Shown in pieces: positions 36,301-38,554 of a stretch of 64,000 nucleotides of DNA. The number at the start of each line of letters is the position of its first letter. Positions within the stretch are counted from its first letter, which is position 1. Origin of the DNA: Armatimonadota bacterium (lineage in GTDB: Bacteria; Armatimonadota; SYMT01); assembly GCA_046292385.1 (NCBI GenBank), contig JBKBRF010000023.1, forward strand, positions 32,001 through 96,000, read 5' to 3'. Made by a program: the position numbers.

Positions 36301-38554
36301 CATAGCAGCTCCGTCCTACCGAATCGCGGCCACACCTGGTGACCGGCGGCCTCCGCGCGTCACTTCAGGGTGATGCTGGCGGGGCGAATGTCTTTCGGGA
36401 TAAAGCGGCGGTCGATCAGCTCCGACATCGGCACCGGCCGCTCCAGGATACCCGCTCGCAGGCCCATCTCCTGGATGCGGTTCAGCTCCTCATCCGTGGG
36501 GGTGAGCATCCGGTAGCTCACGCGGTTGCGGGGCTGCGTCAGGACGTGGCGCACCACTTTCTCATCCTGACGGAAATACGGTGCGGCGAGCGCGGCGGCC
36601 TCCAGCCGGTGGGTTTCCGCCCATTCGCCGGACTCCGCGATGCCCCGTACCAGGTCGGCCACCACCTGGGGCTTTTCCTTGATCACCCGCTCGGTCACCA
36701 CCAGGCAGCAGGAGATGAAGCTGGGCCACACGTCCTTGATATGGTGGAGCACCCGCCCGGTACCGTCCAGCTCCGCCCGCGCTGCGTGCGGCTCGCCGAT
36801 GATGTAGGCGTCGATCGCCCGCACGGCGAGCGCGCCCGGCATGTCCGGCGGCGGCATCTCGATGAACTTCACGTCGTTGGGTGAGAGCCCCCGGTCTTCC
36901 ATCAGCTTGCGGATCACCAGGTACTGGTTGCTGTACTTGCTCGGGATGGCGACCGTCTTGCCGCGCAGTTCGCCCACGTCCTTCGCAGTCGAGTCGCTGC
37001 GGACCATGATCGTGGTGCCGTCGCGGTGGCCCAGGTAGGCGATCTTCACCGGGACGCCCTGCTCCCGCAGCTTCATGGCGAGCGGCACGATCATGAAGGA
37101 GGCGTCGAGGTGACCCGCCTTGATCGTCTCCACCACGGTGGGAAAGTCTGTAAAACGCTGCGACTCGAACCGAGTCGTCGTGCTGGTCTTCGACGCGAAG
37201 TCGGTGACCGGGCACGTCAGGTGTCACGTCACCGGCAGGAAGCCGACCTTCAGCGTCTCCTTCGCCACCACCTGCGGCTCCTTCGCCGCCAGCGCCTCCC
37301 ACGGCCGGAACCGGAGGACGCCGATGCCGGCGTAGACCGCCGCCACCGTGGCCCAGACTTTGATGCTCGATCGGGTCATGCTTTACTCCCGGACAACAGT
37401 TCTCGGATCCTTCTCGCCGCCCGTCCCGTGTCGGCCAACGCACCGCAGCTTGCCCCTGGCTCACGTTTCTTGCCGATGTGCCGCGTCAGCACCGCGGCTC
37501 CGACCCCGCGCCCTTGTGCCAGGAAGCAGCCCTCCCGCGACGACGGTCCTCCGCGCCCTTTTCACACTCCGCTGCGCTCCGTTAGCAGGGCGCTGCGGGA
37601 GTGCATCCCATCAGGCTCTGCCCGCGCCAACAACCGGGGCTCCAATCAGAGGCTCGGTTCACGGGCTGCCTCCTGGCCCTTCGAGCGAACCCCCCTGCGC
37701 CCAGGGGGGTTCACAGGTGCCGTCCTCCGCCGCAGCCTGCGGCTGCACCTCCGGACGCCTCGGAAACATGGTGGTCACCGACTAGGAGACCCCTTTCGGG
37801 AATCGCAGGTACACGCGCGATGGCTACCAGCGGAGCCCGTAGGTTCTGCCGTAGGCAGAGCCGGAGGGTTCCCCTTGTGACCACCCCTGGCGAGGGGTGG
37901 TTGCTTGAGCCGGGGGGAGCGGCCCGTGAATCGCCGCGATGGTGCAGTCGCCGTGACCGATCGCGGCCCACAGCGGGACGGGGAGCACGCCCGGACCAGC
38001 CCGTTAGCCCGAAGGGCGTGGGAGGGCTGAGGGAGGGCCACTCACGCGGGAGGGCCGCTCCCCCCGGTGGGGGCACGGGGTGGAACTGCGGTGAGATGTC
38101 TTGCCCGAAAAGTGGCGGAAGGCCTCCTGCTCGGGAGGCTGGGCCCACAGACGGGGAACGGTGCACGTGGGAGCTGTCACGATCGTAAGACACGGCAACC
38201 CTCCTCACACCACCGCCGGCACGTCAACCTGCTCCGGATCTTCCAGGCCGAGATCGGCCAGCACCTGCTCCACAACCCCTACGACGACCGGATGGGTCAG
38301 GGAACGTCTCCGCGGAAGGTCGATCCGCAGCTCGGAGCAGACGCGGGCGGGACGCTGCGTCAGCACCAGCACCCGGTCCGCCAGCTGCGCCGCCTCTTCG
38401 ATGTCGTGCGTCACGAAGATCACGGTCCGCGGCCGCTCCTCCAGCATCCGTACCAGCTCACGCCGCATCCGGATGCGGGTCTGGTAGTCGAGCGCGGAGA
38501 ACGGCTCGTCCATCAGCAGGATGTCGGCCTCGCCGGCGAGCGCCCGGGCCAGCT

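Follow-up and report, generated by a model that had tools for sequence, protein, structure and literature searches.

The gene at positions 36360..37379 of the window (the whole stretch of 64,000 nt that was analysed, from an Armatimonadota bacterium) is very probably that of a selenoprotein, a substrate-binding protein (SBP) of a NitT/TauT-type importer in which a hairpin is predicted to direct selenocysteine (Sec) into position 52, most likely as a metal ligand. It is a single frame with a UGA conserved across genomes and a covarying hairpin behind it; the genome has Sec machinery, and the product has the fold and the transporter context of an SBP. The gene and its internal codon are placed as follows.

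36360..37379, minus strand: whole SBP gene in its Sec form, NMT1_2/SsuA-like, 339 codons plus a TGA stop at 36360-36362
37224..37226, minus strand: in-frame TGA at codon 52, read as Sec, with Cys aligned in homologues and TGA recurrent

Two minus-strand ORFs, of 51 aa (37224-37379) and 258 aa (36360-37136), lie in the same frame, and the TGA at 37224-37226 is the sole stop between them. Read through, they give a 339-aa product with the site GFLPVT-U52-HLTC56PVTDFA, which matches Pfam NMT1_2 with an E-value of 8.5e-30 (104.8 bits, cut-off 24.7). When 8000 candidates were scored, 4923 proteins matched at E<=0.001, and the best full-length homologues, about 340 aa long, showed 68-74% identity at 88-100% query coverage. 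Among the matches listed, all 118 full-length homologues have Cys aligned to the UGA, with similarity running through the site, and the remaining 2 (P0002 and P0003) come from the window's own gene, called in truncated form. The earlier note had taken the two ORFs, g03321 and g03320, for one gene read through the TGA, and the single frame and the Cys in 118 of 118 homologues bear this out; of the CHxxC motif described there, the Cys at the site stands and the spacing is restated as C/U-x3-C. No NCBIfam 20.0 model attains its own cut-off for the window protein, TIGR01728 (SsuA) scoring 131 bits against a cut-off of 163.5 and 78.9-131.4 bits for five other members. The Pfam domain, the fold and the permease and ATPase genes nearby place the protein among the NMT1_2/SsuA-like SBPs. 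Contigs from runs in two further studies (X2 record 14, X9 record 30) contain a 100% identical sequence including the TGA, with 0 differences. A metatranscriptome-library contig (X17 record 8) covers the N-terminal part including the TGA with 16 differences and 5 gaps; since its source is a relative and the material could be DNA, it was not accepted as evidence of transcription. In the protein library, many representatives are N-truncated and begin just past the site.

TGA at codon 52 was detected in at least 135 distinct loci from several phyla. This total is a lower bound, and at least 120 of the loci came from a pattern scan of genome contigs, with phylum labels of Planctomycetota (60), Acidobacteriota (42), Armatimonadota (4) and others. 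In the 80 loci with full flanks, the upstream frame is open to ...LPVT and 285-349 aa follow downstream, with one exception at a contig end. By comparison, the criterion of Haft, in the available text of that study, is a UGA kept in at least 10 independent examples, all of them TGA (10.1101/2022.07.06.499078). In the window's own phylum, 60 of 401 genomes (15%) carry the gene; 9 of these carriers have the TGA form, verified in 9 of 9, and 51 do not, 43 of the 51 being verified as TGC or TGT. The gene is found in 23 of 301 Planctomycetota genomes (8%), where the TGA form is in the majority (17 of 23 carriers) and was verified in all 17 fetched regions and in one further locus, L038. A tree of 128 proteins requires at least 8 changes between Sec and Cys. 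Carrier lineages were present in soil, root and rhizosphere metagenome runs, and cultured carriers with complete genomes include a planctomycete (L038) and a Myxococcus (L042). The suspicion that the TGA is a recent nonsense mutation, which the earlier note had raised, does not survive this recurrence of the same codon with flanks kept in frame.

Just downstream of the UGA lies the predicted recoding element.

37179..37216, minus strand: SECIS-like hairpin with stems CGUGC/GCACG, GGUC/GACC and CGAC/GUCG and the loop UUCGC

The hairpin begins 8 nt past the UGA and its loop 24 nt past it. The energy reported for it previously, -20.5 kcal/mol, was recovered as the minimum free energy (MFE) of the window's segment UGA+3..+63; as a single sequence this fold does not stand out from shuffles (z -1.59; 16 of 200 shuffled versions were at least as stable), and it is the covariation across Sec loci that supports it. 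The mean MFE of the same segment was -19.8 kcal/mol in 89 Sec loci vs -10.7 in 43 Cys loci (Mann-Whitney p = 1e-17), and Sec and Cys loci also differed inside subfamily A (26 vs 43 loci, p = 6e-11). In 24 sequences of subfamily A, 92.3% of the hairpin cells are paired, a proportion as high as which was seen in 0 of 500 shuffles, and compensatory changes occur at 4 pairs, with 17 cells altered on both sides. Subfamily B gave 96.7% paired, 6 cells changed on both sides and likewise 0 of 500 shuffles as high. RNAalifold recovers the window-type hairpin; in subfamily C its consensus holds the outer stem only, and individual folds range from -13.6 to -32.1 kcal/mol. The pairs of the hairpin are formed in 92% of cases in Sec forms vs 65% in Cys forms. 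The hairpin is constrained at synonymous sites, and the Thr codon preceding Cys56 is ACG in 26 of 26 Sec forms vs 7 of 43 Cys forms.

The bSECIS model, as described in the available text of PMC13188914, has a loop of 3-9 nt, an upper stem of 4-16 bp, a distance of 16-37 nt from the UGA and an MFE <= -7.5. On its points i, iii and iv the window's element agrees, with a 5-nt loop, a 4-bp upper stem plus two stems, a spacing of 24 nt and -20.5 kcal/mol; it departs on one point of the four, as its loop UUCGC lacks a G at its first or second nucleotide. The loops of subfamily A are UUCGC, UACGC or UUUGC, and that of the Planctomycetota subfamily, AGUUG, agrees with the model on this point. Some SECIS elements are stated to lie outside it (PMC13188914, text available in part). 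An Rfam scan by E-value of window positions 33000-41000 returned no SECIS or riboswitch family, nor did a scan of 18 related loci at gathering thresholds, where the only matches were two tRNAs in a single locus (L036).

The full Sec machinery that had been claimed for this genome was confirmed, with matches all above the curated cut-offs: tRNA-Sec with 66.6 bits (C11:87438-87532), SelB with 367.5 bits, SelA with 577.9 bits and SelD with 362.3 bits, the latter with 1 TGA. SelA was also present in 7 of 8 other Sec-form genomes of the same phylum, no match being found in the eighth (G267, 92% complete), and in 4 of 4 Sec-form genomes tested from other phyla. The claim that the genome is rich in Sec genes was checked in part, one in-frame TGA being present in 11 of the 29 AhpC-TSA matches (counted per match, regardless of the position of the TGA). 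SelB and tRNA-Sec would decode the UGA at codon 52 as selenocysteine, directed by the hairpin.

The codon could instead be a true stop, leaving either a pseudogene or a gene split into two separately made products. Gene callers do split the gene (the truncated calls P0002 and P0003), and the many N-truncated library representatives start right behind the site. This explanation is nevertheless extremely improbable: the TGA occupies one codon in at least 135 loci of several phyla with both flanks in frame, the hairpin is constrained at synonymous sites, identical contigs come from other studies, the tree holds at least 8 Sec/Cys switches, and a binding protein without strand 1 and the anchor would escape export. 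Read-through without selenium, whether by near-cognate insertion of Trp or Cys or under a reassigned code, would be helped by the C that follows the UGA in all Sec forms seen, UGA-C being a weak termination context. We regard it as very improbable as well. The SBP genes' own stop is TGA in 66 of the 79 loci where the stop was seen, which argues that the code is not reassigned; moreover, the Sec machinery is present, the hairpin is conserved at SECIS distance, and the alternative residue of the homologues is always Cys. The selenoprotein reading, already proposed in the earlier note, is upheld by the at least 135 TGA loci, the flanking frame kept in them, the covarying hairpins and the Sec machinery.

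Upstream of the SBP gene are the other parts of the transporter.

38205..38957, minus strand: ABC transporter ATP-binding subunit (Pfam ABC_tran, 6.3e-29)
38947..39717, minus strand: ABC transporter permease subunit (Pfam BPD_transp_1, 1.3e-17)
37380..38204, no strand assigned: non-coding spacer of 825 nt from ATPase to SBP gene, containing a single copy of a roughly 600-nt dispersed repeat

Both genes had been described as lying beside the SBP gene. Their position upstream on the same strand stands; they are not directly adjacent, as the 825-nt spacer with its repeat of about 600 nt intervenes. This repeat has 65 matches in its own genome, with 71-75% identity for full-length copies and 76-82% for half copies, and no match in Rfam. 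ORFs in the spacer, with TGA read as U, gave nothing convincing. In 73 of 80 Sec-form loci an ATPase-sized ORF family adjoins the SBP gene, with ABC_tran found in 5 of 5 loci scanned, and a permease family adjoins it in 73 of 80. Beyond permease and ATPase, the gene neighbourhoods of the 80 loci held no clue to the substrate: CarA is a neighbour in 10 loci, 9 of them within one acidobacterial subfamily, and FG-GAP/UnbV_ASPIC in 7 plus the window, and their occurrence is too sparse or clade-bound for either to be used. Neighbour clusters 5 and 8 are probably not genes: they overlap other frames, and Pfam gave no match for either.

The AlphaFold2 (AF2) model of the protein has a pLDDT of 86.9, and its top Foldseek matches are SsuA-type SBPs. 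It shows a strand at residues 41-47 followed by a helix at 55-65; the residues 51-60, which include the site, have a pLDDT of only 69. The residues discussed below are encoded as follows.

37311..37373, minus strand: N-terminal hydrophobic helix, residues 3-23, putative signal anchor (helix in the AF2 model, topology inferred)
37212..37214, minus strand: Cys56, proposed second ligand, invariant in 57 of 57 aligned sequences
37026..37028, minus strand: His118 (LGHRDG), proposed ligand, invariant and aligned to His in 3UN6
36708..36710, minus strand: Cys224 (FISC), proposed ligand, invariant and aligned to Cys in 3UN6

As modelled, the helix at residues 3-23 would anchor the protein on the outer face of the cytoplasmic membrane, and the N-termini of relatives have a similar anchor or a lipoprotein-like 'LxGC'. 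No variation occurs among 57 sequences at residues 49-59 (C/U at 52), His118 or Cys224; the invariant block of 11 residues, PVT-C/U-HLTCPVT, is specific to the Sec/Cys SBP family. In 76 distant representatives, residue 52 is Asp in 39, Cys in 15, His in 15 and another residue in 7, so that 69 of the 76 have one of these three. Cys56 occurs without Cys223 in 11 of these proteins and Cys223 without Cys56 in 40; 25 have neither and 0 have both. The closest solved structure, 3UN6, is titled zinc-bound and has His at 52, His at 118 and Cys at 224 in the alignment. By alignment alone, a 3UN6-like ligand set of Cys, His or Asp is found at 52, 118 and 224 plus either 56 or 223. In the available text of PMC13592312, a 3UN6-like SBP modelled with AlphaFold 3 binds a metal through two Cys together with one or two His.

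The Asp, Cys or His at position 52, the mutual exclusion of Cys56 and Cys223 and the zinc-titled structure lead us to read Sec52 as a metal ligand. In these alignments, the pattern at position 52 thus fits a metal ligand better than an obvious redox pair, and Sec52 most likely contributes one ligand to a Sec/Cys-Cys-His-Cys metal site within the cleft. Sec52 would sit on the floor of the binding cleft, in the loop that joins strand 1 to helix 1, and together with Cys56, His118 and Cys224 it would ligate a metal at a site equivalent to the zinc site of 3UN6. This metal would itself be the cargo, or else serve as a cofactor in holding a small ligand. We tentatively suggest, as a possibility open to considerable doubt, that it is a cofactor and not cargo, that the centre captures a small anion or chalcogen compound, and that selenium sustains its function under oxidation.

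A genuine selenoprotein could also use Sec52 differently, pairing with Cys56 as a redox-active selenylsulfide, like that of thioredoxin-type UxxC sites, for covalent capture or reduction of a substrate. The U/C-x3-C motif does lie in the loop and the first turn of helix 55-65, right behind strand 41-47; redox motifs are found in most predicted bacterial selenoproteins (PMC13188914, in the text available), and this genome has many genes resembling thiol oxidoreductases with an in-frame TGA (11 of 29 AhpC-TSA matches). We consider this role unlikely: distant relatives have Asp (39) or His (15) at residue 52 vs Cys (15), with His118 and Cys224 kept, Cys56 is swapped for a Cys223 elsewhere in the chain with both in 0 of 76, and the closest structure is titled zinc-bound. 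The exchange of Asp, His and Cys at 52 and the Cys56/Cys223 swap favour a ligand set over a dithiol pair, and on the metal-ligand reading they suggest a metal site that the window's family shares with the SBPs linked to clade B CO dehydrogenases.

The SBP family is absent from the 2026 table of 119 selenoprotein families, in the part of PMC13188914 available, and our search of a limited literature collection found no report of the family. To that extent, it is a widespread selenoprotein family missing from current catalogues, and in well over a hundred bacterial species gene callers divide its gene or cut it short. The Sec/Cys pair marks a functional residue of an uncharacterised ABC importer, and places selenocysteine in an extracytoplasmic part of a transporter, beyond the anaerobe-restricted SAO system. 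If the metal is indeed a cofactor, these proteins would form a new class of metal-assisted binding proteins, and a substrate-handling residue would be identified for the whole 3UN6-like group, including the clade B CO dehydrogenase transporters.

The protein had been presented as a second kind of Sec-containing ABC binding protein beside SaoB. This count has to be revised, because SaoB, SaoX and a BtuF-like protein were already listed (PMC13188914; 10.1101/2022.07.06.499078, both available in part). The BtuF-like protein (cd01144, CxxU; Table 1 of PMC13188914, as available) is likewise an ABC binding protein listed as a predicted selenoprotein, but it belongs by its description to another binding-protein class with another motif. 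SaoB (NF040727) also has a pocket Sec in an ABC binding protein, thought to be a metal ligand in the source text available; it differs in its CU motif and is related to another group of binding proteins (3VVE and 4ZV2; 10.1101/2022.07.06.499078), and it gave no NCBIfam match at E<=0.01 for the window protein. SaoX (NF040735) is more similar, with an SsuA-like fold, conserved cleft cysteines proposed as a metal site and occasional selenoprotein forms (10.1101/2022.07.06.499078, in the part available). It is the best match among the selenoprotein families of NCBIfam, but its 67.4 bits are far below the cut-off of 300. According to the same partial source, the Sec of SaoX is at 191-192 (TU), in one species only, and SaoX is part of a locus of nine genes found in strict anaerobes; in the window's family Sec is in the first loop, it recurs in at least 135 loci, and permease and ATPase are the only constant neighbours. 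SAO parts were absent among the Pfam-identified neighbours in the window and the loci scanned.

SsuA, TauA, NrtA and CmpA, which bind sulfonate, taurine, nitrate and bicarbonate, share the fold and the NitT/TauT transporter type; in contrast to the window's family, they are without the PVT-C/U-HLTCPVT block, and their curated models all score below cut-off. SBPs like 3UN6 adjoin clade B CO dehydrogenases, and their substrate is treated as an open question in the available texts (PMC6344411, PMC13592312), where no Sec form is reported; no CO dehydrogenase was seen near the SBP gene in the 80 loci examined. 3UN6 itself, from Staphylococcus aureus, is 23% identical to the window protein and differs in having His at 52 and Cys-Cys at 223-224 instead of Cys56 and Cys224. 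The likeness between the two is nonetheless clear in sequence (phmmer 2.9e-28, profile 2e-43) and in structure (Foldseek E 7e-25, TM 0.71/0.82), and it extends to ligand-type residues at the aligned positions 52, 118 and 224.

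The earlier note had read two adjacent open reading frames as one gene for an ABC substrate-binding protein (SBP) with an in-frame TGA, and this is confirmed, because both lie in a single frame with no further stop inside. The 339-codon gene (36360-37379, minus strand) and its surroundings are listed below.

33674-34531, minus strand: RnfD/NQR2-like membrane protein gene (285 aa), downstream of the SBP gene
34528-36303, minus strand: FG-GAP/UnbV_ASPIC protein gene (591 aa), directly downstream of the SBP gene
36360-36362, minus strand: terminal TGA, end of the SBP gene
36360-37136, minus strand: 258-aa open reading frame, C-terminal half
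37179-37216: hairpin of stacked stems CGUGC/GCACG, GGUC/GACC and CGAC/GUCG with loop UUCGC, -20.5 kcal/mol
37224-37226, minus strand: in-frame TGA (codon 52), the one stop interrupting the frame that runs from the ATG at 37379 to the terminal TGA
37224-37379, minus strand: 51-aa open reading frame, N-terminal half, same frame as the 258-aa one
37380-38204: copy of a dispersed non-coding repeat with 65 matches in the own genome
38205-38957, minus strand: ABC ATPase gene, upstream of the SBP gene (Pfam ABC_tran, 6.3e-29)
38947-39717, minus strand: permease gene, upstream of the SBP gene (Pfam BPD_transp_1, 1.3e-17)

GGGAG is situated 7-12 nt 5′ of the ATG, and the read-through product of 339 residues contains GFLPVT-U52-H-L-T-C56-PVTDFA. 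Contigs from sequencing runs of two other studies were identical across the TGA (X2 record 14, 626 nt; X9 record 30, 251 nt; 0 differences each), and thus the TGA is not an assembly error.

Of 8000 candidates scored, 4923 proteins matched the window protein at E<=0.001, and among the matches listed all 118 full-length hits had Cys at the Sec site, as previously claimed, the other two being truncated calls of the window gene itself. The gene was present in 12 of 61 related genomes, with TGA at exactly this codon in four (the own genome G000, G002, G004 and G018) and Cys in eight. A pattern back-translated from PVT-TGA-HLTCPVT, with synonymous sites free, matched at least 120 stretches in a one-genome-per-species collection. 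Each of the 80 loci retrieved with flanks had an open upstream frame ending in ...LPVT and a downstream frame of 285-349 aa, the latter cut short by the contig end in one locus. According to record labels, some of which look unreliable for MAGs, the 120 pattern loci listed belonged to Planctomycetota (60), Acidobacteriota (42), Armatimonadota (4), Pseudomonadota (3), Myxococcota (2), Bacillota (2) and Actinomycetota (1), with 6 unlabelled. Four sequence subfamilies, A to D, diverge directly after the motif, and the window gene belongs to subfamily A. Labels were at odds with sequences for loci L089, L047, L049 and L095; a 9-Mb genome labelled Comamonas has a subfamily D gene whose motif region is almost identical to a Myxococcus one, and subfamily A genes occur in MAGs labelled Heliobacteriaceae and Actinomycetota.

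At E<=1e-60, 60 of 401 Armatimonadota genomes had the gene, 9 with TGA (all verified at the site) and 51 without, 43 of which were verified as TGC or TGT. In Planctomycetota it occurred in 23 of 301 genomes, 17 with TGA (17 of 17 fetched regions and locus L038 verified) and 6 without, the 3 checked being TGC. A FastTree tree was built from 128 distinct proteins, 85 in Sec form and 43 in Cys form, with the site set to C in every row; it required at least 8 Sec/Cys changes, 7 of them forced by well-supported branches. All fetched sequences amounted to 135 distinct Sec-form and 46 Cys-form loci; the recent nonsense mutation that the earlier note had itself allowed for does not agree with TGA at the same codon in so many loci, and the selenoprotein interpretation of this gene is supported. 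Several protein library representatives (P0127, P0128, P0129, P0133, P0135, P0140, P0149) start at profile positions 21-52, just past the Sec site, and many high-scoring ones with such starts retain the H118, E196, S223 and C224 columns; they resemble Sec forms whose gene calls lack the N-terminal part. P0130 has Gly at the site (PVTGHLTCP), which could be derived from TGA or TGC by a single base change.

The full Sec machinery claimed for the own genome was detected, namely tRNA-Sec (66.6 bits), SelB (367.5), SelA (577.9) and SelD (362.3), whose gene itself contains a TGA. tRNA-Sec, selD and selA adjoin one another at C11:87438-90122. SelA was detected in 7 of 8 further Sec-form genomes of the own phylum, the SelA search giving no match in one, a 92%-complete assembly, as well as in 4 of 4 Sec-form genomes examined from other phyla and in 35 of 51 Cys-form genomes of the own phylum. 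Of the 29 places in the own genome that match AhpC-TSA (PF00578), C41:2746-3117 and C18:101120-101497 among them, 11 had one in-frame TGA, to that extent fitting the description of the genome as Sec-rich.

The hairpin reported after the TGA was reproduced at its energy, but alone it is unremarkable compared to shuffles (z -1.59), and the argument is carried by comparative data. Over UGA+3 to +63, MFE averaged -19.8 for 89 Sec loci, including two identical pairs, and -10.7 for 43 Cys loci (p = 1e-17), at a mean GC of 0.615 and 0.583. Restricted to subfamily A, the averages were -19.2 for 26 Sec loci and -10.7 for 43 Cys loci (p = 6e-11), and the own-phylum sample of 9 against 43 loci gave p = 4e-6. 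In 24 subfamily A sequences the structure was 92.3% paired, with 4 pairs and 17 cells changed on both sides, a covariation level attained by 0 of 500 shuffles, and RNAalifold recovered the same helix unaided. Its pairs were formed at 92% in Sec forms and 65% in Cys forms, and the pairing Thr codon was ACG in 26 of 26 Sec forms versus 7 of 43 Cys forms, which prefer ACC. Subfamily B (Planctomycetota; L022-L101, e.g. L038:4010-4072) has a perfect inverted repeat, GGUCACC-AGUUG-GGUGACC, with a 7-bp stem and encoding V-T-S-W-V-T. Its synonymous positions hardly vary among 39 sequences, and the Ser codon is AGU in 39 of 39; pairing reaches 96.7% with 6 compensatory cells, a level attained by 0 of 500 shuffles. 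Here the RNA hairpin appears to shape the protein sequence that follows the motif. The window hairpin satisfies the published bacterial SECIS model in loop size, stem length, spacing (24 nt) and energy; its loop lacks a G at position one or two, a criterion of that model, whereas the subfamily B loop has one.

Assignment to NMT1/NitT/TauT-type ABC binding proteins was borne out by Pfam (NMT1_2, 8.5e-30; NMT1, 1.2e-15) and by SsuA-type best PDB matches. An AlphaFold2 model built from a 57-sequence alignment (mean pLDDT 86.9, pTM 0.79) best matched the Staphylococcus aureus binding protein 3UN6 (E 7e-25, TM 0.71/0.82), followed by SsuA, TauA, CmpC/NrtA, ThiY-like and PqqT binding proteins. The top NCBIfam match was the SsuA family (131 bits, cut-off 163.5), the SaoX model scored 67.4 bits against a cut-off of 300, and no NCBIfam model reached its cut-off for the window protein or five other family members. 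Residues 3-23 are modelled as a hydrophobic helix, and relatives have either a similar anchor helix or a lipoprotein-like N-terminus, so the protein is probably tethered outside the membrane.

The ATPase and permease genes, described earlier as beside the SBP gene, are indeed upstream on the same strand, but 825 nt separate the ATPase gene from it; the usual order in most other genomes is SBP, permease, ATPase, without such a gap. Full-length copies of the repeat occupying this gap are ~600 nt and 71-75% identical, with many half copies at 76-82%, and its two halves match one another on opposite strands, which makes it look like a MITE-type element. The FG-GAP protein gene is also directly 3′ of the SBP gene in three more subfamily A loci (L046, L076, L096). 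In subfamily D loci L042:1032-3824 and L055:4195-6496, two permease genes flank one ATPase gene upstream of the SBP gene, in contrast to the single permease gene outside subfamily D.

An alignment of 57 sequences with 38-75% identity to the window protein shows no variation at P49-T59, H118, R119, E196, S223 and C224. When 1.84 billion protein representatives were searched with a profile, 303 matched at E<=1e-30 and 2793 had E<=1e-10. Among the best 150, the 76 with a residue in each of the six columns examined had Asp (39), Cys (15), His (15) or others (7) at residue 52, and Cys56 alone in 11, Cys223 alone in 40, both in 0 and neither in 25. This exchange at 52, together with a cysteine shifting between two chain positions, is a signature of a metal-ligand set. 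3UN6, solved with zinc according to its title, has His at 52, His at 118 and Cys-Cys at 223-224 in the alignment; for a 3UN6-like SBP, whose substrate is described as unknown, an AlphaFold 3 model has a metal bound by two Cys together with one or two His (PMC13592312), and metal import was proposed earlier (PMC6344411). On these grounds we infer that Sec52, Cys56, His118 and Cys224 probably form one site jointly binding a metal in the cleft, which would be either imported cargo or a cofactor; pLDDT of the loop of residues 51-60 is modest (69). The main rival is a redox-active selenylsulfide in place of a metal site. A pre-assembled iron-sulfur cluster is unlikely, judging from the sequence, in which no twin-arginine motif was seen before the anchor helix. 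The function is in part inferred.

Of known selenoprotein ABC binding proteins, SaoB carries a CU motif, and SaoX, an SsuA-like lipoprotein, has Cys at 50, 192 and 224-225 and, in one species, Sec at 191-192; both belong to a nine-gene locus of anaerobes (Haft 2022 preprint 10.1101/2022.07.06.499078). SaoB, SaoX and a BtuF-like protein are already among the 119 selenoprotein families in Table 1 of PMC13188914, and hence "second kind", the earlier wording for the window protein, does not hold. That table contains no NMT1_2-type protein with U-H-x-x-C, and our literature search found no published report of such a family; on this basis, within the part of that source consulted, the window SBP family is a new selenoprotein family, an ABC binding protein in which Sec takes the place of Cys. 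Whereas SaoX has its Sec at 191-192 in one species, the window family has it at 52 in 135 distinct loci, and this Sec form is far commoner across genomes than that of SaoX.
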